Shown: positions 1,403 to 62,576 of the stretch, one piece after another | Layout of the letters: every line of letters starts with the position of its first letter | Position numbering within the stretch: the first letter of the stretch is position 1 | Assembly: GCA_012295275.1 (NCBI GenBank) | Contig: CM022679.1 | Location: forward strand, 10,106,001-10,170,000 | DNA: 64,000 bases | Origin: Chrysomallon squamiferum | Taxonomy: Eukaryota > Animalia > Mollusca | Direction: 5' to 3' | Made by a program: the position numbers and the translations under genes | Notes under the pieces: generated by a model | Told to the model about the DNA's origin: nothing | What the model saw: the letters and a program-made list of their open reading frames with translations, nothing else | Database searches by the model: none

Positions 1403-1451
1403 CTACATGATTACATGGAAGAACGCACACGAAACATGAACCATTTCCCAT
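1403..1451 (-). CDS. Candidate alternative first coding exon (Gly2 plus Cys N-terminus), phase 1
   Basis: tga ATG GGA AAT GGT TCA TGT...GTA G|gtaaaa; MGNGSCFVCVLPCNHV; same phase as the exon I donor; preceded by a ~350 nt CpG-containing island. Confidence 0.55.
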
Positions 1452-3184
1452 TCAGTATTTTAATAGATTCTGGTGGACAGCGTGCCACGAATGACCATTT
1501 AGCATCTTTTAGCTTTATAATCCTGTCAAATGCGCTCATGTCAGATGCATTTAGAGTGAAAACTACGGTGGAAGGCCCCTGAAGACTGCACACAACACTG
1601 GCCAATTAGCTGTAACAGGATGGAATAATCAAGCATGGTGTACTGAGCCGTAAACCGGTACAATATCATGCAGCATGTTCGATATTCAATGGATCCGCAA
1701 ACAGTCCCAACAGACTCGCTGCTCAATTGTAATTCACTTTAACAACGATGATGGATAGGAGTGATCTTTCCACTTCCATAATTTGTCAAGAGAAAGTGGT
1801 GGAATACAATGTTTTTCATGAAAAAAAAAAAAGTCTTAATTAAGCCAAGGACACAGTGTTCTAAAATGAAGTGTTGGTCCTCTTTTTTATTCTTTTTCTC
1901 AACATGCAATGATGTTCTGAAAAGTCCATTTAATCAAAAGTCACAGTGTCCTAAGATGAAGTTATTAAGTAATTTTTCTCAACATTCATATTTGTTTTAT
2001 CAAAGACCATTTCAGAGAAAGACATCTATCCTATAATAATTTAACAGGTCTGTTTGCAAGCTCTAAGACAATGAGGTAGAGACTTAAAATAAAGAATCAC
2101 ATCCTTTTTTAAAGATATCTGTCCAATGCCAGAAAATCAAATTAAGAATACAATGTGCAATAATGATTTAACAAATCTTGTCAAAGAATGAGATTTTTGT
2201 TTTACAGCTTTTGCATTGGTTAATCCTTTAAATTGGCAGAGAGAATCGTCTATATACACAGTACGAAAGCCACTTGTGGCAGACTCTGAAACCAGCCACT
2301 GGGCACTGGCTGAAATGGCAAGAATCCAATCAACCTTTAGCACTAATACCAGTAACAGGATCATAAAGAAAGATAATAGATGTAACAAAAGGATGCTTTC
2401 TGCTTATCAAATGCAGCATCAGATTCACTACTTAGATGGTTTCAAAAATCCAAAACTGCATAAACAGCTTGAAGAGAATCCAATTTTTAATGGTCCATCC
2501 ATCAATTTGATACTTTTAATGGACAGAAAATTTTCATATCACAATCAGGAAGAATGCAGCAACATATTCCATGCTTTAATATTGATCTATTGTCTAAAAT
2601 AAGTGCTAAAACCCAAGGACCAAAAAAAAAAAAGATATAATCAAATGATCAAGCTCTGGAAATGATGACCATATCCACTGATTATGAATTGCAGTGGAGT
2701 TTCAGCTCATAATCTATAACCAGTATCAAATTCAATGTTTAGAGATCTAAGGCTGTTGTGATGATCCCCATCTCAGTGGTAAAGCCATCAAGCTTAAAGG
2801 AATTGGACAAAGTCCAACAGCATCAAATCAGAGCTAAAAGGAGAGGTATAAAGCTATTAAGCCAAAAGATGTTCCCTTATCATCTTGTTTTTTTTTTTTA
2901 AATAGTAACTTGCTACCACTCTGCTTATCATTCTGAAAATATCCCGAAAATAAATTCTGATAAATATTTCAAATATGTAACTTTTATCTCCCAAATTTTT
3001 AATGATAAAACAAAATATTAATTCATCTTAGTTTTAATTTATTGTAAGTATATGGATCCCATACTCATTCAAAATGATAAAAGTTGTGTTATAAGAACTT
3101 ATAACACTCCATTTTGTATAACTTTTGTTTAATATTCTCACTTTTAAACCAGCTGATAATAAAAATCTTTACTAATGTTAAAAT

Positions 3185-3618: not shown

Positions 3619-3795
3619 CTTTCATTGGACTTCTCGTCATATGTAGTTGTAGTGGTGGTGGTGGGAAGACGTCTTCAGGTGTATGGGGTCCGTGGCCGTT
3701 GGGGACGTATCCCTGGCCACGATGAAGTAGGTCAGGCACTTGGGGCATTCCGACAGGCTTCGACTGCTGCATAGATGCTTGTTGTTTGGAGATGG
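3619..3795 (-). CDS. CASKIN: Caskin exon I (Pro-rich linker after SH3, phase 1 to 1)
   Basis: ttgcag|CC ATC...AAA G|gtacgt; 177 nt, GC-rich, open in the frame set by exon H: (T)ISKQQASMQQSKPVGMPQVPDLLHRGQGYVPNGHGPHTPEDVFPPPPLQLHMTRSPMK. No recognisable homology, so supported by phase and splice signals. Confidence 0.85.
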
Positions 3796-6402: not shown

Positions 6403-6514
6403 TTTGACTGTCCACAAGAACAACATGGTTGGATGGGAATAGGCCAGTTTTGGCCATTCTGCCTGGCTGAATTATCTGACCCTTCCAGATGCCATCAGGT
6501 TTCTGTTCCAGCAC
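6403..6514 (-). CDS. CASKIN: Caskin exon H (C-terminal half of SH3, phase 0 to 1)
   Basis: ctgcag|GTG CTG...CAA A|gtaagt; 112 nt; VLEQKPDGIWKGQIIQPGRMAKTGLFPSNHVVLVDSQ. Confidence 0.95.
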
Positions 6515-19497: not shown

Positions 19498-19592
19498 TGT
19501 AATGATATCCCCCTCTTTAAAAGAAAGACTCTGCGGGTCGTACAAGCTAAAGTAATCCTTGACAGCCCTGGCTTGACATGCAGAACTTGCTT
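19498..19592 (-). CDS. CASKIN: Caskin exon G (N-terminal half of SH3, phase 1 to 0)
   Basis: atttcag|AA GCA...ACA|gtaaga; 95 nt; (E)ASSACQARAVKDYFSLYDPQSLSFKEGDIIT (cf. Caskin EASAALQVRATKDY...GDIIT). Confidence 0.95.
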
Positions 19593-25812: not shown

Positions 25813-25888
25813 CTGGCACGCCCTGCCCCACACACGCACAACCCACACAGTCCTTCCCCCCAAGACACTGTGGCAGGCAGAACTTCAT
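25813..25888 (-). CDS. Candidate alternative first coding exon (Cys-rich N-terminus) joining exon G
   Basis: In-frame TGA 4 codons upstream; ATG...CCA G|gtaagc; MKFCLPQCLGGKDCVGCACVGQGVP, then G+AA = E gives an in-frame join to exon G; GC-rich island. Confidence 0.6.
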
Positions 25889-41326: not shown

Positions 41327-41435
41327 CTTTTAAAATATGCTTCAGTTCTTTGGCCGCCTTGTTGGACGTGAACTTGTTCACAATGTCCAGCGCTGTCTGG
41401 TCGTAAGAGTTTGGCTTGTTTACATCAATGCCACA
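41327..41435 (-). CDS. CASKIN: Caskin exon F (last ankyrin repeat and linker, phase 0 to 1)
   Basis: ctttcag|TGT GGC...AAA G|gtaagt; 109 nt; CGIDVNKPNSYDQTALDIVNKFTSNKAAKELKHILK. Confidence 0.95.
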
Positions 41436-41704
41436 CTGAAAGCAGAGAAGAGTTATCACAGAACTGGCACCACATGTTTACAATGAGACGTTTACAATGA
41501 GACGACGTTTACGAAACAAGAACGTTTACGCTCACCACTGACTGCACCCAGTGATTCGCTAGCTAGTGTGTGTCTGTCTGTCTGCCTGCCTGCCTACCCA
41601 CTTTGCCCAGCTGATCTGCACAGTAGTGGATCAGAATGCAGATACATGTACACAACTGTGTGTGTGAATAGTGAGTGCAGGCTTTGGTAATCTTATTACA
41701 CAGA

Positions 41705-41737
<33 letters not shown>

Positions 41738-43039
41738 GGTTATAACAGATTACTAAAGATGGATAATTTTTTTTAAATTGTCAATAATAGTCTGTAGAAA
41801 ATAATTATTTTTAAAATTATTTATAACAGATTTTTTTTTTTTTTTTTTTTTTATTTATATATAATAGTTGATTGATAATATTTATTTTATTTATTTTAAA
41901 TAATAGTCGATATAATATATAATTATTGTTTAAATTAAAATAATGGTTAATAATATATCTTTTAAAATTATGTATAATAAGCCTGTTTGTTCTGAATTCA
42001 TAAAAACTGTGATAATGTTTGTTTATTTTAAAGAAAGAAAATATTTTAATTCATAAATATTTATTAAAATTATCGCTGAACTTCATGACTGAAAAAAGTT
42101 AAAACGAAATAAAACAACAGAACAAAGTCTATTATTATTAGATGGGGAAAAAACTGTGTGAGTGTTTGTACTGTGTGTACTTATTTCAATATGCTTTTTA
42201 ATTAATTTATTATTAGATTAACTCTATAAAACTCATTGACATCACATTAATTTTAAATTAAAAAAAAAAAAAAAAAATTAATGTAAATTTTTCTTTATTA
42301 TAAAGAAGATTTTTTTTTTTGGGGGTCATATATGTAATATTTCTTCCTTTCCTCTGCTTTTCTTGGTTTATCTTTTATTTCTTGTTCTCATTATTTACAT
42401 TTCTTTCATTCTCTCTTTCAGACACACACACATAAACATACACATGTGTATGTATGTATGTATGTATGTATGTGTGTGCATGTATGTATGTATATGTGTA
42501 TGCATGTATATGTATATATGTATAGACACACACAAACACTTAAAAGGTAATTATTAATATTCAGATCTATTGACATTTGTTACCCAATGTGGTTAACTAA
42601 CAAAAACAGCAACGATTTTAACTGATCTTTACATATTAATTACTCTGCATTTCATGTCACTTTATTTTCTTTTCTCCTTCTGTATCAAGATTTCTTCCTT
42701 TCACCACCTATCACAAAATGCGTCTTCACATTATCTGTGCACAGCCAATTTGCATTTTATGGTTTATTTATCTACCAGCAAAAACCTTACTGCACTAAAT
42801 ATGCAAACTTCTTATATCAACAACTGCATTGTAAAACTCACCAATGTTGATATAAGAATTTACTCTGGTAATAAATCTTATAAATAATACACTTTCTATC
42901 ATCTGTACATAAACAAAAAAGCCCCTTTGACCTAGAGAAAATTAACAAGCTTAATTTGTATGACAGACACATAGCCAAAATATGCTAGGAAGTGAATGAA
43001 ATAATTAGATACCCATATCGAATGACAGAGAATGCAAGG

Positions 43040-43600
43040 GTAACATGGTAACAGTATATCTGCATTGTTATGTAAGCAGTCTGTAGTTGAAAGTCCAGTT
43101 TTAACACTTCGTTGGTAACATTTTATCTGTGTTATGTCAGCATTCTACAAGTTTTAACAAGTTATTGGTGATATATGTCCTGAACTTTCTGTTTACTGCA
43201 GTTTTAAACTATGACGTTGGTAATATATTTGTATTATGAATCATTCTATATTCATTATACAAATTTTAACATGTTATTGGTAATATGTTATCCAAACTTA
43301 CTGTTTACTAGTTTTAAATATATGGAGATATGGAGATAGTAATATATTTATATTATGAATGCATTCTATATTCATTATACAAGTTTTAACACATAACTGG
43401 TAAAATATTATTAAAATTTTCTCCATTTACTACAGTGGTTTTAATATACAGGGTTGGTAACATATTTGTATTATTAACATGTTCTGTATCACTCATGCAA
43501 ATTTTAATAGGTTATTGGTAATATATTACCTAAACTTTATTAATACATAGGGTTGGTCACATGTCTGGATTATCTAAACTTTATCTATTATATATATTTA
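43040..43600. repeat. Diverged ~55-65-bp tandem repeat
   Basis: Recurrent gttttaac....ttggtaatatatt. Confidence 0.7.
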
Positions 43601-45222
43601 CATTATTTTTTTTTTAAATTAATATCTCTTTTATTTAAATTTTAATTTAAATAATAATTGATAATATATCTGCTTTCTCAAACCTTTTTCTTTTTTTTGG
43701 TGTAAACATTTGATTTACTAGTTAAATTAATTAACACTAAATAGTAAATAGGTGTGCATAAAATCTGAATCTCCATATGTGCATACACCAATTTTTTTTT
43801 TAACAATAAAGAAAATGAAAAAAAATAAAAAATTCAGATAAATATAAAACTATTAATCTGATTAAAACAATTAACAAGGAATGTATAAGGTTTGAAAAAT
43901 TAAATTAACTACAAATTAAAATAAATGTATGAAGTTCACCTACTTTAGTCATTCTCATTCGAATGTAACTTGGTCTTCCTGCCATGGATTTAGATATGAA
44001 CCAGTTGTATTTTTCATTAGACATCTTTATAAATTAATTATATCCACAAGTTTAAAAAATTCCAAGAAAAAGATCCAGCAACACACTTATATGAATCCAT
44101 TTTCGTAAAGAATTAAATTTCACTTTAAAAAACAGCACTTTTAATATTATAAAAAGGAAAAAAAAGAAAAAAAAAGAAAAAAAGAAAGGAAAGCCACTTT
44201 TGTAAAATCCAGTGAAATTATTTGTTTTCGTTTTTTTCTTAACAATTCAAAAAAACCTCACAATGTTACGAATTCAATGAAATTTTATATGAATTTTGAT
44301 TTCTTTATATTTTTCCAATACACAACTCAATTTCATAAGCAACAACAAAAAGAAACAATAGATCTCCCTTCCATGAAATTAATTGAAATTTTGAAGGTGT
44401 TTTTTTTTTTTTTTAAGGATATAGTTAAGATCCTAATAAATATTAAAGAACAAGAAAAAAAGAAACAGTTCTTTGAATTATTTGCTAATCAGCTGATACG
44501 TTTTTTGAGGAAAAGTTAACAACAAAAAACTATCTTATTATTAATTAACTCTTAAACGCAGGAACAAGAAAAAAAAAGAGGATAAAAATCCAGATTAATA
44601 TTTTGGCGATTGTTTCCAAAACAGCAAAGAAAATGTAAACACAAAAAATATTCCTATAATTCCTGGTAAACATTTATATTATGATTATGTCATTCCAGCA
44701 GAACAGTACAAAATTCAACAGAAGAATCAAAATCAAAATCATCTAATCCAGAAGTATTTGTATTTCTTGATGTTTTTCCATGTTTTGTATTAAAGCAAGT
44801 TACCAGTTCAGTAAATATTCCTATAAATTCAGGCCCAGTTGAAAATTGCTGTATTTTCCTTCATCTTTTGCAATAATATAACTGAGAACTGATCCAAGAA
44901 ATAGAGAGAAATTAAAAAAAAGATTTCAGTAAATCAGAAAACATTTGTAATTTTTAGTACAAGATATAAATAATATAGCAAAGAAATGATCCTCAAAAAA
45001 CAAAGAAACAGAAAAATAAAAACATTTATATAAATCAGAGTATATTTGAAATTTTTAGTTATGAATTTTTAATTATTATTTTTTTTTTGCAACAGAGAGT
45101 CAAATCAAGAAACTAAAACAGAAAAAACCCCAAAACAAACAACAAACATTTCTATAAATCCTGATAAATTTGCAATTTCAGAACTGAATCTCCACAACTT
45201 TCTGAAAACACCAAAGAACAAG

Positions 45223-45253
<31 letters not shown>

Positions 45254-45629
45254 AAGAAAGACATCCATTCTCACAACTCCAGGAAAAGATTATTGTGTAT
45301 TTTACTACTTGGGCCAACATCTAACCCAGTAAACACCAGCAAAAGAAAACAGGTGTGACTGATTATATCAGAAATGAAGTAAACACAAACATTTCAACAC
45401 GCTTTTAACCTCTGTTTTGCACAAAATGAAGGAATTCCTCAGTAAGTTGGGTAATAAAGGAAAGTCAAAAGAAACGGTTACCACCATCAATCAACAAGAC
45501 TGTTGAAATAAAAAAAAAAAAAAAAAAAACAACACTTATGGAGATTAAATCGATTGTAAACATGACTTCCAAATTAGTACATTGGTTGTAACTTGCAGGT
45601 GAAAAACAACAAGCAATAATTCACAGAAT

Positions 45630-46130
45630 TCTAAGGAGTAAATCCCCAAATCCAATGTAGTAAATCCCAAAATCCAAAATAGAAAATTTCAAAAACCTAG
45701 GCACTAAAATCCAAAATCAAATGTAGTAAATCCCAAAATCCAGTACAGAAAATTCCAAAATCCTAGCAGTGAATCCCAAAATCTGATATAGTGAATGCCA
45801 AAATCCAATGTAGTAAATCCTGAATCCAATATAGAAAATTCTAAAACCCAAAATCCAGAATAGTAAATTCTAAATTGTAAGCAGTAAACTTCAGAATCCT
45901 AAGTAGCAAATACCAAAATCCAAAAGCACTAAATCCAAGAATTCTAAACAGCAGTATCATAATCCTAAGCAATAATAAACAAATCCTTAGCTTAAATCCC
46001 CAAACCTCCAAGCAGCTAATCAGAGACTCCCTAGCTGTAAATCTCAGAAAACTAAGAAATAAATCCCAGAATCCCAAGCAGTATATCCCAAAATGCTAAG
46101 CAGCAAATCCTAGAATCCTAAGTAATAAAT
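45630..46130. repeat. ~21-bp diverged minisatellite
   Basis: Recurrent aaatcccaaaatcctaagtagt. Confidence 0.85.
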
Positions 46131-47473
46131 TCTTCTCCCCCAAAATTAAAATTATTCAAAGAAAACATGTCCAACTTATTCATCATGGAACGTAACAGGA
46201 AAACAATTACTGGGTGCTTATGAACTTGAATATTAAAAAAAAAAAAAAAAAAGCAAAATTGCTAAGAGAAATACCTAAAAAATATGCACTGACATTAAAT
46301 AAAAGATCAGATCTGATAATAGCTTATGACATACAGAAACAAATATGTTATGGCGAAATGAAATTGCATTAATACATTAAGTTCCATAGCAAGTATAAGT
46401 AGAAACAGCTCTAAAAACAATGTGTATATGTGTGTGTGTGTGTGTGTGTGATATTCCTCTCTATTTATACTTACAAGATATTAAAGTGCCTAACCTCCTG
46501 CCAGCCGGAAGATATAGACATCAATAGTGATGAGGATTGAGGGATTTTTTTACAGGGCGTAAATGTCACAACAGAGATAAAACCATCAAGATAAAGTATG
46601 GGCAACCTGTTTCTTAACTGTATCATGCTCTCCTTATACTAACACGAAAAATGTAGGTTAATTTTGTTAAATAGTGAAGCACTTGTAGATTGATTCAGAG
46701 AAGACAAGAGGAATCCCATTACTTAAATTGAGCTTTCAGATGTAGAATGGGTTTTTTTTTTTTTTTTTTTTTTTTTGTAATGGAATAAATATTAATTAAA
46801 ATGAGAAGTTTTCAGAATGATTGGCAGACCATTGGTGACATTATTGTTTCAGTTTGAAATTTTGAATTGTTTATAACCAAATCATACGCGTAAATAAATA
46901 AAAGATATTAATTAATTAGTTAATTAAAATAAATGAATAAATTAATGAAATTTGTAATTTTAATTGAGAGAGAAAGAAAGAGGAAGAGATTTAGAAATAC
47001 TTCATCCAGAGAGAGAGATGGAAAGAAATATATCTAGAGAGAAAGAAAAAGAAAGAGAAACAGACTGACAAACAAGAAGAACTGAATTTTGCTATTCCTA
47101 TTTCAGTGTGTAAGTAATTTATAAAATAAATGTGACAACTTCGGAACAAAATTATTCCCTGTGCTATCGTTAGTTTGGTTATGAGTTTGTTAAGTGTTAT
47201 AGCAAATTGTTCACAGCAACTCTCAAAATACAACAAAAGCCTTCAGTTTTACTGAGTTCATAAAAATATACTCCCAGGAGTGAGATGAATATGAGAAATA
47301 AATGAAGAGCTTGTCAAATAAAATGACAAACACTCCAGACTACTTCATCTTGGTATCAAACATTTCATCTTTTTATTTCAACTTAATGCAGTTAGAACAT
47401 GAATTCAAATTATTGGAATTGTTCTATATGTTTTATGGCCATCATTTTAAATTGTCTCTAAACAGCATCTTTA

Positions 47474-47513
<40 letters not shown>

Positions 47514-48385
47514 ACGTCTCATAATATGATATGAGTAATATTTAAGCTTCATGTACATTTTTATTTCATTAGTTGTATTATTTTTGTTATTGTTGTTGTT
47601 GTAAATAACATCTTTAAACCTATAAATGTATATAGAAGTATGTCTCATAATACAAGATGAGAAACATAACCTTCATGTATATTTTCATTTCATTAGTAAT
47701 GTCATTTTTGTTACAGTTGTTATTAAAAGATACTGGCTATGAAACTCTTGTGTTAGTTACTACCAACTTTCTTTTCATTTAATTTTTTTTCTTTCCAAGT
47801 TTTCTACTTATGTCTTGTCTTTTCTGTTTATATTAATGTGTATCTCACTCTAATCTGTATCTATATGTGTCTGTGCATCCACTTTCCATTCTGTATTTAT
47901 TGTTTTCCCTTTCTCCCTCTCTCCTTCTCTCCCTTCTTCTCTTTATCTTTTCTCTCCCTTTCTCTTTTTCTCCCCTTTCTCTCCTTCTCTCCTTTTTTCC
48001 TCTCTCCCTCCCTTGCCAAGTAACTTTAAAATTAAAGCCTATTTCAAATGATAGCAGCTACATTACGGTATGTTACTAGTGCCAACACATCCAGATAAAC
48101 TCTGACCACGAGGCCATGTGCAGTACTGAAAGACAGATCAGTCTTTTCATCAGAGCTGGAACTGATACAGCCAGTTGTGTGTCAGGCAGAGAGAAAGCTG
48201 GCAGTCTATGGCCAGGTACCTGAGCCATCCTCGGTGTCAGTGTTATCAGCAGGGTGTTCAAGTTTTATTTCACAAACACGCTCATCACTCTGAATCTTCA
48301 AACTTCTCACATGTTCACTGCAGCTGGACAGTTTATCTTTTTATCTCTTGCAGGAAACTTGGTGATGCAGCCCTTGTGTTTTGTG

Positions 48386-48440
<55 letters not shown>

Positions 48441-50009
48441 GTGTGTGTGTGTTTATGTGTTGTGATGTGTTGTGTGTGTTGTTGATGCTGCCTCATGAGA
48501 GACAGAGACAGAGACAGAGACAAAGACAGAGACAAAGAGACAGAGACAGAGAGAGCAAGAGCAAGAGAGTGAGAGAAAAAAGAGAAAGACCATTAATCTT
48601 TTACATATAAAAATGTACATAGTTAATTTGTAATTTTTAAAGTTTTCTCTGACTTAAATTTTCTTAAGGTAACAATTCTTAGCCATTTCTGGAAAAGAAG
48701 AACATTGACTTAGAACTCCTCTGATACTGTGATGTAATTTCTAACGATGAAAAAGATGAGATTATTTCAACAAGCACATATGTACTCAAGTATAATATTT
48801 AAAAACAATTTCTTTTTCCTCATATAGTATACTTTGTTTTGACAAAATTACATGGTTTGCTCAATTTTCCAGTCTTGTTTTACTGCTAATTAACTGATAA
48901 CATTTTAAAAGAAACTTATTTTTTTTCTCATGAAAACACAGTCAAAGCTAACAATAAAATATTTTTCATTGTTTTATATAGATTATATTCATGTATGTAC
49001 CAAATTCTATAATAATAATAATAATAATATTTCTTTAAAAATAAGAAGTTTAAAAAATAAATGAAACATATTGTAAGAATATAAAAACCAGTAAAAAAAA
49101 TAATAATAATATTAATAATACAACTAGAAATTACCTTAATTAGTAAAGAAATGAATGAATGAATGAATGAATATGGAAGTATACTCATTGAAGTTGACAG
49201 TGAATATCTTGTTTTTTTTAATATCCTAGTTAATCATCTGATAAAAATCATGTAAAAATAATAATAAACAACTGCTAATATCTGCTGAATGAATCATTGA
49301 TATAAATTTTTTATTTTTGTTTGTTTATTTTTTTTTTTCCTAAAATCAATTTTTCTAAATGTTTATTTAAGTCTGGGATTGCTTTTTGTGACACCCCCCC
49401 ACTTTTAATTTTTTTGTTTTGTTCAAAAGAACAAATTTAATAGTCATTTTAAAAAGTAAAAAAAGCTATTTATTTTAAATTTAAAGAATCGGTTGCGTTT
49501 TTTTTTTGATATTTCTTTTTATGAATATTTAAATAATTTTAACTCAATATTAAATTTAAAAGAAATAAGCGTATTTACTATATTGTAGTTCAGTGACTTT
49601 TAATTTATATATGTGTCTGCATTTGTGTGTGTGTGTGTGTGTTTGTTTGTGTGTGTGTGTGTGTGTGTGTGTCTGTGTCTGTGTATGTAAACAGAACCTA
49701 TGTATGTGAACTTGTAATGTTATCATTTACATTTTTTTTGAACAAAAATTTAAAAACAAAATTCTTCAAAGAATGCAATTTACTTTACCTTCTTTCTACT
49801 TCATGTATCAAACATTTTTTTTTAAAAAAAATTATTTTTATTTATTTTTCAAGACTATGAACACCAGCCAAGCTTTCTACACTACCATACCAATAAGTTG
49901 TAGATCACCTTTCAGTAGAAAACGCACCTGTAATATTTCATGGCCGTACAAAGTGGCAGGTGGCAGTTACAGGTAATCATCAGACTTCTTACAAACATCA
50001 ATTACCTAC

Positions 50010-50027
50010 CTGGAAACAATTCTTCAT
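50010..50027 (-). CDS. Candidate alternative first coding exon joining exon F
   Basis: ATG AAG AAT TGT TTC CAG|gtaggt; MKNCFQ, phase 0, giving MKNCFQ-CGIDVNK. Confidence 0.4.
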
Positions 50028-50154
50028 TTGAAAAAAAAAGCCAGATAAAAGGAAATGACTCAACTGTGTACTGAAGTAAGGGTTCATGTCGGTTGACTGG
50101 TGTGTGTGTGGTGTACACTCGTATTAACTAACACTTTGTTTCTCAATTCTTTCA

Positions 50155-51065
50155 GCGTGCCACTGGTTTAGCATGTAGTGTGCCACTGTTTAGAATGTAG
50201 CATGCCGCTGTTTAGAATGTAGCATGCCACTGTTTAGAATGTAGAATGCCGCTGTTTAGAATATAGCATGCCACTGTTTTGTATATAGTGTGCCACTGTT
50301 TAGAATACAGCATGCCACTGTTTAGAATATAGCATGCCGCTGTTTTGTATGTAGCGTGCCACTGTTTAGAATACAGCATGCCACTGTTTAGAATGTAGCA
50401 TGCCACTGTTTAGTATGTAGCGTGCCACTGTTTAGAATGCAGCGTGCCACTGTTTAGAATACAGAGTACCACTGTTTAGAATACAGAGTGCCACTGTTTA
50501 GAATACAGAGTGCCACTGTTTAGAATACAGCATGCCACTGTTTAGAATATAGCATGCCACTGTTTAGAATGTAGCATGCCACTGTTTAGAATACAACATG
50601 CCACTGTTTAGAATATAGCATGCCACTGTTTAGAATATAGCATGCCACTGTTTAGAATGTAGCATGCCGCTGTTTAGAATATAGAGTGCCACTGTTTAGA
50701 ATATAGAGTGCCACTGTTTGAAATATAGTGTGCCACTGTTTAGTATGTAGTGTGCCACTGTTTAGAATGCAGCATGCCACTGTTTAGAATACAGCATGCC
50801 ACTGTTTAGAATACAGCATGCCACTGTTTAGAATATAGCATGCCACTGTTTAAAATATAGCATGCCGCTGTTTAGAATGTAGCATGCCACTGTTTAGAAT
50901 ACAGCATGCCACTGTTTAGAATGTAGCATGCTATTGTTTAGAATATAGCATGCCACTGTTTAAAATATATCATGCCACTGTTTAGAATACAGCATGCCAC
51001 TGTTTAGAATACAGCATGCCACTGTTTAGAATATAGCATGCCACTGTTTAGAATACAACATGCAC
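50155..51065. repeat. Homogeneous 22-bp minisatellite, ~41 copies
   Basis: Unit gccactgtttagaatatagcat. Confidence 0.97.
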
Positions 51066-51772
51066 TTTATGGTAAGTCAAGACATTTTCTTCCAGCTATA
51101 CAGTACATGTCACATAAGGACATACCCAAGTTTAGAAATAGAAAACATTTGGACTGAAGTTGATAACATTTGTAAAATGCCAGTCATATTTTGCTCCTTG
51201 CCTCCTATAGGTGAGGATTATATATAGACAATTTACATGGTCATCATACTTTGTACTATATACAGAACTGGAAAATACCAAAGTTTAAAATTTTTTTAAA
51301 AATCCATAAAACCAACCTTTAGACTAAAGTGGTAACGTTTCCAAATTTTATTATCTGCTGATGAAGAATACATAAATAATAAATACACAGCCAATTAGAC
51401 ATTATATTTGGAACCATAATTTAAGAAAAATTTTAACTGTAATATTGGTAATATCTTATGCAATCTCTGAAATGTGAAATACCTCTTGCATGTTGATGAA
51501 AAATATAAATGACTTTAAAATTTCTGAATACGAAGCCTATCATTTACTGTACACTGAAATGATTCACAGCAAACCTAATAACAGATTTCTACATTTGTTC
51601 AAACTGTGAAGAACAATATTTCTGCTTCTTCATGGACAACACATTTCACTTCATAAACGAAAAAGAAAACAAGTCTGGCAATCAGTGTTGATGAAAAACA
51701 TGTACAAACTTTCAATACTAAAAAAACATGACCATCTTTTTATATGCTACAGTTGTTATCTTCAATATTTTG

Positions 51773-51871
<99 letters not shown>

Positions 51872-51903
51872 TAATAATAATAATAATCATCATCATCATC
51901 ATC

Positions 51904-51939
<36 letters not shown>

Positions 51940-52299
51940 AATAAAATAAAAAAATAAAAATTTCCAAAAAACTTTAAATCTATCTGATATGAAACCCAAA
52001 ATTTCAAAAATCTCATCTAAAACACCCAAGCCTTTACTCTCAAGCCTGGAGGGATACACAACTCCATACTAGTGCAAAGTGGTCCAGAAAAACAAACATG
52101 TGGACATGTTTATTTGCAGAACAGTAAAGCTGTCTAGCAGCTCCTAAATAAAAGACTCGTGCTGGTGTGTAATTACAAACACCTGTCTGCCCTGCACATC
52201 AGACTGCGATCATCAAGTCATCTCACATTTTTATAAACCAGTCACTCAAGTGGAAATACAAGTCAACAGGAGTTAAAAATAAAGAAAAAGAAAAGCTTG

Positions 52300-52780
52300 T
52301 CTCTACACATAGGTTGATAATCGCAGTCTACCCACAGGAGACTGATAATCACTATCTTCTCAAAGGAGGTTGGTAATCACTAGCTACACATAGGAGACTG
52401 ATAATCACTATCAACACACAGGAGACTGATAATCACTATCTTCCACAGGAGACTGATAATCACTATAGTCACAATTCCACAAACCTGGGGTACCAAAAAT
52501 AATAATAACAAGAACAACAATAAATAATAGGAGACTGGTAATCACTATCTTCCCATAGGAGACTGATAATCACTTTCTGCAGATAGGAGACAGGTAATCA
52601 CTGTCTACACATAGGAGACTGATAATCACTATATACACATAGCAGATGATAATCAATATCTACTCTTCCATAGGAGACTGATAATCACTATCTACCCATA
52701 GGAAAATGATCACTATCTACTCATAGGAGACTGATAATTACTATCTTCTCAAAGGAGATTGATAATCACTATCTTCACAT
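52300..52780. repeat. ~28-bp minisatellite, interrupted once
   Basis: Unit ataggagactgataatcactatctacac. Confidence 0.9.
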
Positions 52781-54744
52781 GCTTTTCTTTTTTATCATTA
52801 TTTTCTGTAGTAATTATAAACAGTAGTGTAATGACCAGAAGGTTTACTGGCTTAGTTGCTTAGTGGTGTAATGTATACTGATTGATTGTACTTGCATGCT
52901 TTGATTCTGTGAAATCTTTGGCATTTAAAAAAAAAAAACAGTATCTGTGTTCAGTAATATGATTCACTAAAATTGTGCATGTGTATGTGTATGTTTGTGG
53001 ATGCATGTGTATATGCAAGTGTATGTGTGCATGTGTATAATACAAAACTGAAAATTGCATTTTTTCAATACCAAGTACTACAAAAAGCTTTACCTTTTCA
53101 CATTCACACACAACCAATACAAACCATGATTCATAGAGCTCTGTGTAATTTAAAACATAATAAGATTCCCATATAAACCAACCTGGCTTGCTTATAATTA
53201 ACCATTTTCCAAAAAGCTATTCACAGAAAGGTTATAAATATACTTTTTTTTTTTCTTTCATTCTTATTTATATTTATGAGCAATCATCAAAACATTCAAA
53301 GAATCGACTATAAAAAAATTTTCACACAGTTTTATGTTTGAAATTTTCTGAAAGCTTTTACTTTCAATTATCATATAAGTAACATAATTCTTGTTTGTAA
53401 ATTTAAAGAATAATTTCTTAACAATAACCAATCTTACGGAAACTATATTTTTTTTTTTTTTTTTTTAAATCAAGATAATTAATGACTTTTATGCAGCCAC
53501 ATTTGATAAATAACTGATAAAATATCTTCAAGTTCCTATTCATGCTGCATAATAGGAAATGTAAGGATATAATAAAAGTCAAATGCAAATAAAAGAAATA
53601 CTCTTTTAGAAAAAAAACAAAACAAGAAAGCAATCCTCTAGCTGTCATTAAGAAATATAAAAAAAATTGCGTATAAAATATTCTAGGTATACCATTTTAA
53701 ATTTTGTATTAAGGTACAAAATTTAAATATTTTACCAAAATGTTTTTTTTCTTTTCAATAAACTATTTAATTACTGCATTCAACAATGTCAAAACATAAG
53801 TTCAACAAAGCTTGCAAGATAATTGACTGGTTGTGAAAAATTTAGGTCAGCAGTACCTTTAAAACATTTCAATTTTATAAAAAAAAAAAAAAAAAAAGGT
53901 TGAGAATTAATCTTAATGTAAACCTCAGATTTAAAAAAAAAAATTCTTAGCAGATAGACTAAGCATAATTTTTACATATAACAGCAGCAGACATATGCTT
54001 TAAATATGGATAAAGTTTGTTCATGATTTCAAAAACATTTTCTTCACATTCAGATGCATTCTGTGCTCTGATTTGAAATACACTCGATAATTCATATCTA
54101 TTTAAATTTTTCCATTTTATATACATGATAACACCCATCAAATTACACAAATTAACAATAAAAAATAAAAAAAAGACACTAAATTTATCTAAATTAAATT
54201 CAGTCATGCAATACATGTGGTAATTCAAAGCAAATTAGATGTAACTATTTTATAGCTATCCAGACAGTTATTTTCTAACATCATGGTTTACACACACTTA
54301 TGAACAACACCATAAAACATGCATTAAAATGTATCCAGTTTATAAATACATGTGAATAATGAGCATGAAAAATGTGTAAATTTTACTGAATCCTTTTAAA
54401 CGTACACACAGTATTTCAGATACAAACACATTTATTCAGACTGTCTCAAACATATATGAACACTATCTGAAACACAAACATACACATGTACATGTTTACT
54501 ATCTCAAACATGCAAACATGCATATTACTGCATACATGCATGTTATCTTTAAACATAAACCTGTACAAAATACTATCTCCATCACACAAACCCACATATA
54601 CCGACATTCGTAGAAAACACACACAGAGACACACAGACACACACATATATGGACACCATAATAAACATGTTTAAATATATATGGAGAGTGACTCATGCAG
54701 GTATACATGTTTTTGTAAAACAAGGCAAAACACAGAAAACTTAC

Positions 54745-54853
54745 GTCAAGCAGTAGTCTAACAACTTCTGTTTTGCCGTACAGAGCAGCTTCATGTAAAC
54801 ATGTTCCTTTTAAAGTCGCCCGATTTATGTCCATTCCAACCTGTAGCAGCAAC
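54745..54853 (-). CDS. CASKIN: Caskin exon E (ankyrin repeat, phase 2 to 0)
   Basis: gttacag|G TTG...GAC|gtaagt; 109 nt; [36 protein letters not shown], close to Caskin [21 protein letters not shown]. Confidence 0.96.
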
Positions 54854-54869
54854 CTGTAACATAAAATAA

Positions 54870-55287
54870 GTCAGATGTATTATACATCATTAATAATACT
54901 AGAGTTAAATACAAGATGCGTTACACACATTAATAGTAGTTTAAATAAAACAATGAGTACCATACTTAAATACAAGATGTGAAGTTAAATACAAGATGTA
55001 TTATATAATAATACAAGAGTTAAATACAGGATGTAATACATATTAATAATGTTAAATACAAGATGTATTACACAATAATAACACTAGATTTAAATACAAT
55101 ATACATTACATTAATAACACTAGAGTTAAATACAATATATATCACACATTAATAACACTAGATTTATATACAATATATATTACATTAATAACATTAGATT
55201 TATATACAATATATATATTACAGATTAATAACACTAGATTTAAATACAAAATGTCTCACACACATTAATAATATTGAAGTTAAATAC
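54870..55287. repeat. ~36-bp minisatellite upstream of exon E
   Basis: Unit ~taataacactagagttaaatacaagatgtattacacat. Confidence 0.85.
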
Positions 55288-55919
55288 TGTCTTTCCAAAT
55301 GACCACTTTTAATTATTATCGACATCAACCGTTGCTGATAATAAAGTTAAAAAATACAATTATCCCAATGTCATGTCTGAAGACGTTGCTTGTAAATGGT
55401 CATTTCAATACACTGTAAACATTAAATAAATCTGTACAAATCTGTGAATCGGTCTGTTTAATCATTTGTGCCTTTTTCTTTACTGTTTTCTTTGGGGGGT
55501 TTTTGTGAGGTTTTTGGGGGGTTTTTTGTTTGTTTTTTTTGCCTTTAGGAGTTTTCTACAACTACTCTGTAAACACCAGCGAACAAAATACTGAAGAAGA
55601 ACACACACACAAATCTGCGATTAACGCAATCACGGAACCTATATGACAAGGTATCTAATCTAGAAGCCATTCTTGTTATCCGTCTAGTCGCAGAGATAAC
55701 CCGGAGCTCTCGAAATATTTGTCTTGGGTAATAACAAGTCTGTTTACACCGACTGCACCTCCTGCGACCAAGTATCTTTGTTATCAAATCTAAATAACAC
55801 ACACAGACTTGACTTCTAATGTAGATGAGTGTTGTCTGTTTATCTGTTTCTAGAATGTCTGCTGTTACAGTGTGATAACTGTTCACTCAGTGATGGTAAA
55901 ACTCTTTACATGGATTGTT

Positions 55920-56049
55920 ATTTCTTTTAAAAATAGAAGTATGCTGGTTAATGGATTATTTTCTTATGAAAGAGAATCTGTTGGTGGATTTTTAATATTT
56001 ATACATACATACATACATACATACATACATACATACATACATACATACA

Positions 56050-56096
<47 letters not shown>

Positions 56097-56132
56097 GTAT
56101 TTTAAAGAGAATCTACTGGTGATTTTTAAATC

Positions 56133-56164
<32 letters not shown>

Positions 56165-56590
56165 GTATTTTTAATTATTATTTAAAAATAGAAAATTGGC
56201 TTGTGGATCATTTCTTTATGAAAGAAAATCTATTGATTGATTTTTAAAATATATATGTATATTTTTTTAATTATTATTTAAAAATAGAAAGCTGGTTTGT
56301 GGATTATTTCCTTAAGAAAGATGATCTACTGGAGGATTTTTACATTTTTTAAAACAATTCTTTTTTACTCCTTTTAGAATATTGGATAATGGATTATGAA
56401 ACAGTGGTGGATTTTTTTTTACATCTTTTAAATTCTCATTTAAACTTTTTAAAAAAAACCCAGAATACTGGTTAATGAATCATGTCCTTATGAAAGAGAA
56501 ACCATTGGTGGATTTTAAAAAATATTTATATTTTGTTATTTTTAAAAAAATAAAAAAAGAAGAAAATTGGTTAATTGATGGTGTACCATT
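55920..56590. repeat. Diverged tandem repeat with embedded (ACAT)n and (TA)n
   Basis: Recurrent aaaatagaa..tggtt..tggattatt...ttatgaaagagaatct..tggtggatttt. Confidence 0.7.
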
Positions 56591-56879
56591 CTTTTCTTAA
56601 GTTGAATTTGTATCCCAATTGTAAATTAGAAAAATAAAAAATAAATAAAAATAAAAGATTTTTTTTTTTTTTTTTTAAATATTTACATAAGATTAGAGTC
56701 TGATGTTTTGAGTTACACATATCCCAGTACCACTCCTCAGGTATAAAAAATCAAAACAACAAAAAAATCTTACAACAACCTGTCACGTTAAACAAATAAC
56801 AAACACATGTTTCTGTGAGCTAGCTATTGTGAAACATTTTCCTTCCTTCCCTTTAACACCCAACACATGATTTCTGTTA

Positions 56880-57170
56880 GTACACCTACAATACACGATA
56901 TCTATTACTGTATCTGTGTATGTACACCAATATCACGTTTTCTCTGTTATTCCATCTATATATATATACACCTATATCAAATTATCTCTATTACTATATG
57001 TACACGTATATCAAATTATCTCTATTATTATATTTATAAATACTCCTATATCAAATTATCTCTATTATTATATCTATAAATACTCCTATATCAAATTATC
57101 TCTGTTACTGTTATTATTGTATTTATGTGTTACACCTGTATCAGATGATTTCTATTATTATATCAGTGAG
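56880..57170. repeat. ~40-bp minisatellite abutting the exon D donor
   Basis: Recurrent tacacctatatcaaattatctctattattatat. Confidence 0.85.
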
Positions 57171-57179
57171 AACACCTAC

Positions 57180-57310
57180 GTAATGATGTCAGCGTGGCCA
57201 TTTTTGGCGGCCAGGTGAAGACAGGTGGTTTGACTGTTGTCTGTGAGATCCTTCTCATTGACCTCCAGGAGTCTGAGACACAGGTTGTTTCTCAACAGCA
57301 GCTCCACAAC
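57180..57310 (-). CDS. CASKIN: Caskin exon D (ankyrin repeat, phase 0 to 2)
   Basis: acccag|GTT GTG...ATT AC|gtaggt; 131 nt; [43 protein letters not shown](T). Confidence 0.95.
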
Positions 57311-57454
57311 CTGGGTATCAAATATAATAACAATACATAAATAAATAAAAAAATAAAAAAATAATGTAAAACAGTATTTCCACAAGCTGGAGTATAATAA
57401 TAATAATAATAATAATAATAGAAATATGTAAAACAGAGATTCCACAACCTAGAG

Positions 57455-57553
<99 letters not shown>

Positions 57554-57620
57554 AATAAATAAATAACATAAAACAATGTAGTATGAAAATAATATAAATA
57601 TGTAATGAAATATAAATAAA

Positions 57621-57675
<55 letters not shown>

Positions 57676-58804
57676 TAATATTAAAAACTTTTAAAATAAT
57701 AAAATAAAAGGTTTCTGCCAAGTGTTATTTAAAAAAAAAAAACAGTGAAAAAAAAGGAAAGAAAAAGACATCATGTTTCATAATATGAGGGAAAAGACTT
57801 TTAACGATAAATCACTGTTTAATAATAAAAATAATAATAACAATAACAATAATAATAACAGTAACATAAAGAAGTATGCATATCATATGACAGAATTATT
57901 TTATGTGTTTCATTTTCAAACTGGCATATAAATTATTAATTAATTAATGAAACTTAGAAGGAAAAAACAACTGATTATTAAAAAGTATAGGATTAAGACA
58001 TTTATAACATTGTAAAATTTAGGCAAAGCAGGTAAACTCATTTTGTTAACATCAGTAACAAATAGCATTAAAAGACTGAGTGGAACAGACTTTTTCTCTA
58101 CACCTGTTTAGAAAATACAAGGCAGTATGACAAGAAGTCCATTTTACAACACTTGCAGGTGCAAAACTACATTACTTTCCACCTGTTTCTGTGCATACCT
58201 AATTTACCTGGGAGTTAAACAGTAAATATTTTAAACTTGCTAACCAGCTTGTGGCATTTCTTAAAAGGTTAGCTCTTCCACGTGAAGAGGTTTCTGAGAA
58301 CAGTGAGATTAAACAAGTGTTTGTAATTTTACAGAACATCGAGGTGTGATGTATTTTAAAACTGATAAATACAGAGAGCATTTTGAAAAGATAAATGGAT
58401 AATATTTAGTCCGAATTATTTTTTAAAAGATAATATTTTATGTGATGGATTGTGAAAACATGAATATAGAATATTATACTGTGTAGAGTATTTTGGTAAT
58501 ATAGTAATACAGTAGTGCTGTATTTTTTAAAAAGATTTTGTGTTTAGAAAAGATTGTTTGATGTATTCTGAAACAAACTATTTCAGGGAAGAGAACATGT
58601 TTCTTTTTAAATTGTCTGTTTATGAAGTATATAAAGTTAAAACACAAGAAAAATCACTAAAACTAAATTGAACATATTAAACTCTTGCTAAATTATCTAC
58701 CATTACTTTACGCTGATCAATGTTTCTCTAATTTACAAAATTAATAAAAAATTATAAAGTTTTTTGGATTAGAAACCATTTTTTGTTAACAGTTTGTTTT
58801 TTAC

Positions 58805-58900
58805 CCTGTATCGTCCAAATTCACAGCCAAGATCTAGAGGGGTTTTATTTTCTTTGTTGGCCACTGTGGGATCTCCATGATGTAACAGCAACAAGTTAGC
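58805..58900 (-). CDS. CASKIN: Caskin exon C (ankyrin repeat, phase 0 to 0)
   Basis: tttcag|GCT...AGG|gtaaaa; 96 nt; ANLLLLHHGDPTVANKENKTPLDLGCEFGRYR (cf. Caskin KTPLDLACEFGR). Confidence 0.95.
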
Positions 58901-60375
58901 CTGAAAGTAAAATAAAATAAAATAAAATGAAATAAAATAAAATAAAATAAAATATAATAAAATAAGATAAAATTAAGAATAATTAATATATGGAGAGTGA
59001 CATCTTAACAAGTTTTAAGTTCAAGAATACCATTTTAATATCAACGGTTATTATGTTATGAATAGAAGTTCTGAAACGGTGAGATCTAACAAAACCTGAC
59101 TAAAGTTAAATGACAAGGAGCAATGGATCCTCTTACAACATGAGTGTGTATTCCATGAACTCTTATACACAGGTTTTACAGCACTGATGTGAATGGGTAA
59201 TAAAAATACAGGTTAGTATAAAATAATAATAAAGAAGTGTTAAAAACGGGAGAGAGAGATTAACTTATGTAAATCTCAGAAATAATAAAGTTGTTTTCTG
59301 TTCATGATAATTCAATTTAAAGGAAGAGTGAGCTGTTAATATAAAATTATTTTGTTTCTGGATTCAATTAGAAACTTGTTAATGTGCTATGTTAATGTCT
59401 GTACTGAGTGTCTGTGTGTCTGTGTGTGTGTGTGTGTGTCTGTCTTTGTGTTTATATATGTACTCATCTTCTCCTTTGCATACACACACAATCTATATTT
59501 CTACATGACTATTTCTCACACACATACATTTATATTTCTACATGACTATGTATGTCTATAAACAGCAGTGATATCAGTTACCTAAGCATTTTTTTTTTTA
59601 TATTTACACGTGTACAGGAAGGAAATATGGGTTGTGACATATGAGTTTTATTTGCCTGTATGAGAACAGATACAGGGGTAACAAAGTGTTATGTCATAGA
59701 TCAGTCTCACAGGTGATGGTGAGTCACTGAATAAATGTCACCATATTTCTTTATAAACTAAATGTGTCAGTAAATAAATTTTGTTTAAAAAAAAAAAACA
59801 GGGAAAAAAACTACAACAATAATCAACCCAACATTCGATTTAAAGACCAGTTCTTTTCTTTGTGACATTCTGGTAATAATAAAAATGTGTGTGTTCCTCT
59901 TTTTCATGTATGTTTGATGTATGTGCAGGTTTTGTGTTCTACTGTTTGTGTATTGTTTGTATGCTGTGAGTGTGCAGGTATTTTTCTGCATATTTATGTT
60001 TTAGCTTCTTTCTTGATCTTTTTTAAAAATAGAAATAATACTATAAATTCTTAGAAATTCTTAATTTTTGGTTTGTTATATATATTCCTAAACAATTGTT
60101 TTAGAAAGACTGTAACAGAGAAGAAAACAGCGAGATAGATTGAGTGATTAAAAGACAGAGAGATAGAAAAGAACTGAGAAAGAAAAAGGGGCTGTAAGAG
60201 ATGTTAGAAAGAGAGGGGGAAGATACAGACAAATGAAGGTGAAGTGTATATACAAGAGTAGAAAAAACTCTTCACAGACCAAGTCAAACATAAGAATTTA
60301 ATAAACTGGTCGTGCAAAATTCCAATTTTGAAAATGATTTTAAAAATAATAATGATGTACCTTGTGACATCATTC

Positions 60376-60440
<65 letters not shown>

Positions 60441-60618
60441 CATACTCACACACACTTAAGAAACCCAAATACTATTACAATAATTACTATCATATTCCAT
60501 TTCCTTGCAATACATTTCTAAATCATCATATATAACAAACCATTGCTATAATAATACAGACATCTCGTATATTTCAGTTCAACCTTACTGTACATCGGAA
60601 AGTTTATTTATTACTGAC

Positions 60619-60764
60619 CACATCAAAATTTCCATGCTGACAGGCAAGATGCATGGGCGTGTCTCCATTCTGTGCGTGCAGGTTGACAGGTGACCCGTAC
60701 TGTAGTAGAATGTGAACTGGTTCCGACTTGCCCTGCCAGGCTGCATAGTGCAGAGGAATCATAC
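60619..60764 (-). CDS. CASKIN: Caskin exon B (ankyrin repeats, phase 1 to 0)
   Basis: ttttactag|GT ATG ATT...GAT GTG|gtcagt; 146 nt; GMIPLHYAAWQGKSEPVHILLQYGSPVNLHAQNGDTPMHLACQHGNFDV; PLHYAAWQG is characteristic of Caskin. Confidence 0.95.
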
Positions 60765-61242
60765 CTAGTAAAACAGTGAAATAGTAAAATAAAGGTATAT
60801 GTTTATGTATATTTTTGTGTTGGGTATAGTGCTTTTATAATTATGAAAAGTAAGTTTGAAAAAGATGGCAGTATATATAATGAATGAGAGAGAGAGAGAG
60901 AGAGACAGAGCAAGAGAATGAGAATGATGGAGAATGGGAGGAAGGTAAGGGGAGAGGTGAAAGAAGGAAGGGAAGGAATGAGAGGGAGGGAGGGAGGGAG
61001 GGAGGGAGAGAGAGAGAGAGAAAACAGATGATTGAACATTTTTGTTTCTATATTAATATAAATAGCTTACAGATTTTTTATGACATTTTAAGACAGAGAG
61101 AGAAGAAATAGGATTTAAAAAATTATTACAACACTTCCAGAAAACATTATTCATTTACATCACATCAAATCATTTACAGTGACACTTAAGTATAAAAAAT
61201 ATCTTTATTTTCACTGAAATGGCAACTGAGAGAGAGAGAGAG

Positions 61243-61303
<61 letters not shown>

Positions 61304-62405
61304 GAAATAGACAGAGACAGAGACAGAGATGAGAAGAAAGACAGAAGAAGAGAAATACAGAATGTTATTATTAAATAACTTTAAAAAAAAATTAAGTGAC
61401 TTTTTACTGAAAGACATTAAAAACATTTCTCGGTGCAAGAGAATTTTTGTCAACATCAAACAGTTTTTATCAACACTCAACATAACTCTGACATGTCTGT
61501 TATTATAAAGATTGAAACATTTTATCCAATACAGACAAAAGCCATAAAACATTTGATTTCTTTTTAATATGAAAGATGAATATTTCAACAACTTCAAAAA
61601 GGTATATTCTTACCATCCAAATTTTTAACTCTAAACCTAATTTGATAAACCTTTTTTTTTTTTTTTTTATTTTTTTTTGTTTTTTATATTATTTCTTTCA
61701 CTTTTTGTTGAAAAATACATTAATTTAAAACCAGTATATGATTTTTTTTTTTTTTAAAGTTAAAATTTAGAATTTTTCTTCGTCTCTAAATATGCGTGTC
61801 AGTTTTATGACAATTTATATTTGTAGAATTGTGTGTAAAAAATGAAGATTCTTCTAGGAACTGGAGTCAATTAATTTTTACAACTTCAAACTCACTGAAG
61901 CAGATTTTTATGTTGGTTGATTTAAAAAGAAATACTGATAAAACTTTTTAGTTCACAGATAAAAAAGCCTTTAATCCACAACCAATGCAATTTAATTAAA
62001 AGTAAGTTCTGCAAAGAAAATACTCAGGGATATATTTTAGTGCTCAGGAATTTTTCAGTAACAGTTTTGACTGTTAATATCTCTGAATGAAAAACAATAC
62101 AAATTTTTAACCAAGAAAACAAAAGAAAAAAAAGAAAAAGCTTAATTTTATACTAAAAAAAAAAAAAAAAAAAAAAAGAAAATATCCCGAGAATTAAACA
62201 AAATTATATATCCATTATAAAAACAAAATAAAAGATAACCTTTAAAATATTAAAAAAAAACCATTTCCTTTCTTTTACTTATACCCATTTAATAACTGAT
62301 ATATATCACACCTATCTGTGTTATAAAAGTGCTATAACAAATATAAGAATACTATAACACCATTAGTTACCAAATTTAAATGGTTCTATTACGGTGTGTA
62401 TTTGC

Positions 62406-62468
<63 letters not shown>

Positions 62469-62478
62469 TGTTATTTAC

Positions 62479-62576
62479 CTTTTTCATCTCTGATTTCAGT
62501 GGAAGCACCATTTTCAAGAAGCAACCTCATCACCTCAGTGTTACTCATAAGAGCAGCTTGATGTAGAGCTGACATT
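62479..62576 (-). CDS. CASKIN: Caskin-family protein, coding exon A (ankyrin repeat; first exon inside window, phase 2 to 1)
   Basis: tttttcag|A ATG TCA...GAA AAA G|gtaaat; 98 nt; xMSALHQAALMSNTEVMRLLLENGASTEIRDEKG, matching Caskin [34 protein letters not shown] (recalled human CASKIN1). Confidence 0.93.

Follow-up and report, generated by a model that had tools for sequence, protein, structure and literature searches.

Fyn/Lck and G-alpha-i carry both a myristoyl and a palmitoyl group on N-termini of the SH4 type. Myristoylation often primes the palmitoylation of nearby cysteines (PMC7373427). A short alternative N-terminus that contains cysteine can also alter the membrane targeting of a synaptic scaffold: palmitoylated N-terminal variants, established by experiment and keeping the core domains of the protein, are reported for PSD-95, SAP97 alpha and GRIP1b/GRIP2b (PMC6365469). 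Caskins are scaffold proteins of nerve cells. They have been described as soluble scaffolds with protein-interaction domains only, and Drosophila Ckn as one that 'differs in domain composition' (both in PMC5020537). Head-to-tail oligomerisation of the SAM tandems is reported for human Caskins and depends on their concentration (PMC4994250). The listings and opening lines of abstracts of the Caskin literature contained no description of a lipid-anchored Caskin isoform.

We found that 64,000 nt of DNA from Chrysomallon squamiferum (the window) contains the 5' half of a Caskin gene on the minus strand, identified by its matches to Pfam, to PDB and to homologues. Exon I retrieved a single protein, Gigantopelta aegis caskin-2-like (P0001), with which nine exons in the window share 83-97% identity, as befits a gastropod closely related to G. 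aegis. The exon at 60607-60789 encodes the N-terminal ankyrin repeats expected of a Caskin (Pfam Ank, E 6.7e-12), and the SH3 domain is of the Caskin type (Pfam SH3_2, E 5e-4). The first SH3 exon had three PDB matches, of which the best two were the SH3 domains of Caskin-2 and Caskin-1 (E about 0.005); the last ankyrin exon, used as a PDB query, had no match. These matches bear out the initial annotation, which had taken the gene for a Caskin. It had also placed SAM domains downstream, as is probable from P0001, the closest homologue, in which ankyrin repeats and SH3 are followed by two SAM domains and the Caskin tail. Judged from P0001, the SAM tandem and tail would fall outside the window, the next exon matching P0001 from residue 424. 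Features of the locus are listed in Table 1.

Table 1. Features of the Caskin locus in the window (window positions; a slash marks the exon/intron boundary).
Feature	Positions	Strand	Remarks
Splice donor, intron side GTAAAA	1397..1402	-	TAG/GTAAAA; X5 identical at +1 to +6
Candidate coding part, alternative first exon	1403..1451	-	16 codons MGNGSCFVCVLPCNHV (1451-1404) + G at 1403
Low-polymorphism CpG-containing block	1426..1877	.	likely promoter or enhancer; bounds chosen from data
Predicted 5'UTR	1452..1492	-	41 nt, or 37 nt with start at G1488; ATG-free; predicted from motifs
Initiator-like TCATTC	1489..1494	-	6/6 to TCAKTY; A+1 = 1492
TATA box TATAAAG	1513..1519	-	TATAWAAR matched at positions 1-6 of 8; initiator A follows at 27 nt
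Caskin exon I	3619..3795	-	phase 1 to 1; donor AAG/GTACGT at 3619; 90% identical to P0001
Caskin SH3 exon, second half (SH3b)	6403..6514	-	homologue and domain matches
Caskin SH3 exon, first half (SH3a)	19498..19592	-	phase-1 acceptor
Conserved Cys-rich alternative first exon	25813..25888	-	starts MKFCLPQC; 25 codons, 4 Cys; phase-1 donor CAG/GTAAGC; fits SH3a acceptor
Ankyrin-repeat exons, long isoform	41327..62575	-	P0001 matches
Ankyrin match positions	~62575-62477, 60765-60613, 58900-58778, 57265-57179, 54852-54745, 41435-41327	-	P0001

The intron that follows exon I contains a candidate alternative first exon, 2.2 kb from exon I. On the minus strand, TGA (1454-1452) is followed directly by an ATG at 1451, 16 codons plus a G, and a splice donor; this arrangement, the starting point of the initial annotation, was confirmed letter by letter. 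The donor is in phase 1, as is that of exon I, and GC content drops from 0.40 to 0.22 across it. The donor has no G at +5, and the start context is weak (T at -3, with G at +4 and an out-of-frame ATG 7 nt later). We rejected an in-frame cassette exon, which the stop preceding the ATG and the lack of any AG between 1451 and the donor's own AG argue against. A 64-codon frame at 1605-1414 was also rejected; it ends in a stop ahead of the donor.

The 16-residue peptide begins Met-Gly and contains Cys6, Cys9 and Cys13. It fits at residues 3-7 the PROSITE-type pattern for N-myristoylation, and with three cysteines near Gly2 it resembles the myristoyl and palmitoyl anchors to which the initial annotation had likened it. 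Like SH4-type N-termini (Fyn/Lck, G-alpha-i), it has Met-Gly, small residues at 5 and 6 and Cys within the first 13. As in PSD-95, SAP97 and the GRIP variants, a short alternative Cys-containing N-terminus is proposed to alter the membrane targeting of a scaffold. In contrast to those variants, the product starting at 1451 is a prediction, would add a myristoyl-Gly, and would drop the ankyrins, SH3 and exon I.

We asked how often such an arrangement occurs by chance. An ATG with an open frame of up to 40 codons leading to a phase-1 AG/GTRA donor was listed 23 times on the minus and 17 times on the plus strand of the window; two of the 40 rows were script artefacts (stop at codon 2), and those on the plus (non-coding) strand used 11 donors. 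Only the row starting at 1451 fits the myristoylation pattern inside its own codons. In 150 simulated order-4 Markov strands of 58 kb, a donor preceded by the pattern turned up at a rate of 0.02 per strand, or 0.007 where at least two Cys were required; at least three Cys were found in none of the 150. These simulations overstate the surprise because the feature at 1451 was chosen after being seen, and the rarity on its own is suggestive only.

The exon that follows exon I is in the phase that the donor at 1403 needs. We examined assembled RNA contigs of four runs from one study (X1-X4), which show presence but not absence and from which rare forms are dropped. The contig containing exon I had a depth of 51-142 in X1-X3, and its loose ends led to SH3b on one side and, on the other, to a new exon that lies left of the window. 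As judged by eye in each of these three runs, the new exon supplies the rest of an Asp codon begun by one G and then encodes H-L-E-N, in line with residues 424-428 of P0001. That is, in all three RNA runs that cover exon I the next exon is phase 1, as the initial annotation had supposed, and the donor at 1403 would therefore join it in frame, phase 1 meeting phase 1.

The only spliced form in the RNA contigs joins exon I across the candidate element, as the long isoform requires. In the four runs, the contig ends nearest to 1403 were at 1596, 1493, 1522 and 1447, with no loose end at 1403; since contigs lose rare forms, we did not take this as refutation. All four runs had a contig over about 1600-1766 at 3.6-5.4x. 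We did not count this coverage as expression because positions 1-689, downstream of the candidate donor, are similarly covered (2.7-5.1x in X1 and X3) and because an invariant, GC-richer block assembles better. Elsewhere in the same region, read-through of the exon I donor (minus strand, 3619-3611) reaches a stop after two further codons, and one 4x X1 RNA contig crosses this donor by 22 nt; if the intron after exon I were retained, the product would contain ankyrins and SH3 alone. In addition, an annotated Mizuhopecten isoform (X3, P0139) skips the exon I equivalent and joins SH3 directly to the next exon, which accords with exon I being phase 1 at both ends.

The DNA upstream of the ATG is distinct in composition. 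Positions 1452-1790 have 42% GC and 10 CpG (o/e 0.66, versus 0.28 for the window), and rank among 339-nt windows in the top 1.1% by CpG count and the top 1.9% by GC. The only other match to the block within the window is a 39-nt segment downstream of it (2133-2171, 79%), and we rejected a repeat or transposon since the window holds no other copy of the block. The region is thus CpG-containing and non-repetitive, as had been noted at the outset. An ATTGG (reverse CCAAT) at 1606-1602 was spotted by eye. There was no match to an Rfam family at gathering score, and the block folds without excess stability (z +0.88; 83 of 100 shuffles fold equally well). Other non-repetitive intronic blocks with 44-46% GC, at 39900-40300, 41450-41700 and 47990-48400, resemble 1426-1877 and may likewise be promoters or enhancers. 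Near 40012, an open frame rich in Cys and starting MGPACC has no phase-1 AG/GTRA donor within 40 codons.

We found that the block varies little between individuals. We compared the window to sequences from five runs in two studies: the four RNA runs and X5, which comes from another individual, is of unrecorded type but covers introns evenly as DNA would, and has one contig over 1315-3810. X5 had 1 substitution in the 339 nt from 1452 to 1790 and 81 in the 3023 nt outside the block (2.7%; Poisson P=0.001), two short pieces of X5 not being displayed in the comparison; with bounds chosen from the data (1426-1877), P was 7e-5. Similarly, X3 had 1 difference in 1522-1877 (356 nt) versus 7 in 1-505, and X1 had none in 1596-1877 (282 nt) versus 5 in 325-547 (223 nt). 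X4 had none in 1447-1766 (320 nt), and X2 had 1 in 1493-1877 (385 nt). Selection thus acts on the promoter side, or that side at least does not vary. Low polymorphism signals function but does not distinguish a promoter from an enhancer.

The coding part behaves differently from the promoter side. The TATA and initiator motifs, ATG, Gly2, Cys6/9/13 and donor are all intact in X5, in which a 2-nt insertion near the donor merely extends the A run. However, the 49 nt of the candidate coding part contain 2 substitutions in X5, versus 1.3 expected at the background rate: a synonymous change at 1425 in the Cys9 codon and His15Arg at 1408. The tail of the candidate peptide is not visibly constrained.

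Motifs of a core promoter, of which the initial annotation had made no use, lie upstream of the ATG. TCAKTY, which the initiator-like sequence matches, is the Drosophila initiator consensus (PMC4581360 Table 1). Spacing between TATA and initiator is given as 27-34 with an optimum of 30-31, and 29 is regarded as the normal lower limit for mouse (PMC1779604 section 8); the spacing of 27 at this locus is at the low edge of that range and is marginal. A pyrimidine-purine step found by eye (C/G at 1489/1488) would give a TATA spacing of 31 and leave the first ATG unchanged. TATA promoters with pyrimidine-purine starts have been reported in an annelid, another spiralian (PMC7854359); our literature search found no comparable promoter data for molluscs.

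All nine ATGs upstream of 1451 and up to 1900 (1819-1498) precede the predicted start, and by these motifs the core promoter leaves 1451 as the first ATG. The window has 2672 ATGs, of which seven are the first after a TATA and initiator pair (37 with loose motifs), and among the 422 ATGs with GC-rich upstream DNA 1451 is the only one, 26 having TATA alone before them; the motifs behind these counts were picked after the sequence had been viewed. The nine ATGs amount to no depletion of ATG in the block. The initial annotation had read 1452-1790 as a 5'UTR or promoter. TATA, initiator and low polymorphism are consistent with a promoter; with eight of the nine upstream ATGs inside the region, and a predicted 5'UTR of no more than about 37-41 nt, a promoter is the better reading for most of it.

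The candidate N-terminus was absent from the proteins retrieved for comparison. We compared it to 401 proteins (the best 120 of 1967, 161 further cluster members of which a few were not Caskins, and the best 120 of 146 shorter proteins), with 322 distinct N-termini. None of the 401 matched; the best local score was 27, versus 28.5 for shuffled peptides. Three proteins had non-canonical MG starts, none of which fits the myristoylation pattern. The sample represents the close lineage by one gene model, so that a young exon would be missed. A metagenome contig (L001), the sole locus among the matches listed, was rejected as an orthologous intron, having 61% GC and a 16-residue chance match.

Caskins with SAM domains only do occur. 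Mollusc Caskins in the sample show many alternative starts; for Patella vulgata (X5, P0122) and Mizuhopecten yessoensis (X4, P0144), the annotation includes an isoform of the SAM-only kind. In addition, many of the arthropod caskins listed have only SAM domains in precomputed Pfam assignments. Like the predicted product, these proteins have two SAM domains and the tail without ankyrins or SH3. Unlike the 1451 peptide, none starts with an acylation motif; the mollusc ones are automatic gene models, and P0122 simply starts within the X1 sequence, at Met450, and gains no N-terminus of its own.

We also found a conserved alternative first exon in the same gene, starting at 25888. Its peptide matches the N-termini of six gastropod and bivalve proteins with scores of 54-88 (shuffled maximum 48), and each of the six continues into the SH3 exon. 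The isoforms, from Patella (X4), Biomphalaria (X5), Nucella, Mercenaria, Potamilus and Sinanodonta, start MK(F/L)C(L/I)P.C; oysters have a weaker version, MLC(V/VP). The 25888 exon likely gives rise to a palmitoylated, ankyrin-less Caskin and is better supported than the 1451 exon. Like the candidate at 1451, it is a Cys-rich alternative first exon with a phase-1 donor. The two are not homologous: the 25888-type exon precedes and keeps SH3, lacks Gly2 and shows conservation between classes.

Other possible starts were seen between the SH3 exons and in related proteins. On the minus strand, 10316-10301 encodes MGLCL plus a G with a perfect phase-1 donor (TAG/GTAAGT) and an upstream CpG o/e of 0.66; spliced to exon I it would give a further Gly2/Cys4 start, and no homologue was seen. 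At 15258-15228, also minus, ten codons from MCGECK lead to a phase-1 donor (CAG/GTAATG) and may be there by chance. Six lophotrochozoan isoforms (P0002, P0029, P0047, P0121, P0196, P0223) have MGT-Cys, polybasic or Cys-Cys starts that precede the last ankyrin exon or the SH3 exon. Their sequences suggest repeated use of membrane-targeting N-termini; no orthologues of these six starts were found in the window.

Based on these results, we give about an even chance to the proposal that an internal promoter and first exon produce a lineage-restricted, dually acylated, SAM-only Caskin isoform. The phase of the next exon, the TATA/initiator pair with 1451 first after it, the constraint, the drop in GC and the simulated rarity argue for it, as does the use of internal first exons by mollusc Caskins (the 25888 exon and the annotated SAM-only P0122 and P0144). 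Against it are the 0 of 401 N-terminal matches, in a comparison that the 25888 exon passes with ease, the coding part without visible constraint, the weak start context, the marginal spacing, a TATA match of 6/8, the missing +5 G, and a sole spliced RNA form that skips the element. The low polymorphism fits an enhancer too. The block could instead be a non-coding element under constraint, such as an intronic enhancer, at whose edge a small ORF, a donor and TATA and initiator motifs lie by chance. The constraint on upstream DNA rather than on the last codons is consistent with this, as are the lack of a homologous N-terminus, the ATG-to-donor arrangements on the non-coding strand and the undepleted ATGs. 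However, a three-Cys myristoylation pattern, an in-frame donor, a TATA and initiator pair with 1451 first and a GC step would then all coincide at one edge, and we consider this main alternative less likely.

There are two further explanations. The internal promoter and first exon could be real but translation could begin at a later Met, either because transcription starts upstream among uORFs or because the weak ATG is bypassed, giving a soluble SAM-only Caskin. The internal Met of Patella X5 and the weak context at 1451 fit with such a product, and a uORF from 1539 overlaps the 1451 ATG out of frame. We nonetheless judge it improbable: a start at 1492-1488 leaves no upstream ATG, +4 is G, the frame continues into the next exon, and the acylation motif is itself rare by chance. 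Finally, TAG/GT at 1403 could be a zero-length recursive splice point, AG/GT being both acceptor-like and donor-like, or it could lie in the end region of a transcript of the long isoform that retains the intron; low-depth RNA contigs over the intron upstream would fit with either. The pyrimidine tract is poor, though, +5 is not G and exon I is only 2.2 kb away, and the promoter motifs are left unexplained. Contigs of the same low depth (3-5x) are also present over 1-689 downstream, which is what pre-mRNA or DNA background would give. We hold this last explanation to be very improbable.

In the proposed dually acylated isoform, the block in the intron after exon I would act as an internal TATA/initiator promoter, with transcription from about 1492-1488. 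The transcript would have a leader of 37-41 nt and a 49-nt coding start, would be spliced at 1403 into the phase-1 next exon, and would be translated from 1451, its first ATG. The product, predicted to be ~1020 aa, would consist of the 16 residues and the equivalent of P0001 424-1430; that is, it would keep the two SAM domains and Caskin tail and lack ankyrin repeats, SH3 and exon I. Removal of Met would expose Gly2 for myristoylation, followed by predicted palmitoylation at Cys6, Cys9 and Cys13. Anchored by both lipids, the SAM tandem would become concentrated at the membrane with no need of partners for ankyrin or SH3, which would promote its head-to-tail oligomerisation. Since SAM oligomerisation depends on concentration, membrane anchoring would favour local polymerisation.

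More broadly, and tentatively, a ladder of internal promoters may swap the ankyrin (and SH3) targeting of mollusc Caskins for lipid anchors. The 25888 exon would be an ancient rung of palmitoylation type, and the 1451 exon a younger, myristoyl-plus-palmitoyl one that brings a bare SAM tandem to the membrane, and there the tandem would serve as a seed or cap for polymers of Caskin. The surprise is moderate, as a lipidated alternative N-terminus is already known as a mechanism; what would be new here is the Caskin family, the dual acylation and the shedding of whole domains. If the proposal is true, this would be the first lipid-anchored Caskin, and a membrane-anchored SAM-only form would provide a direct means to nucleate Caskin oligomers at the membrane. 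An invertebrate lineage would then have come, within another family of scaffolds, to the same device as PSD-95 and GRIP1.
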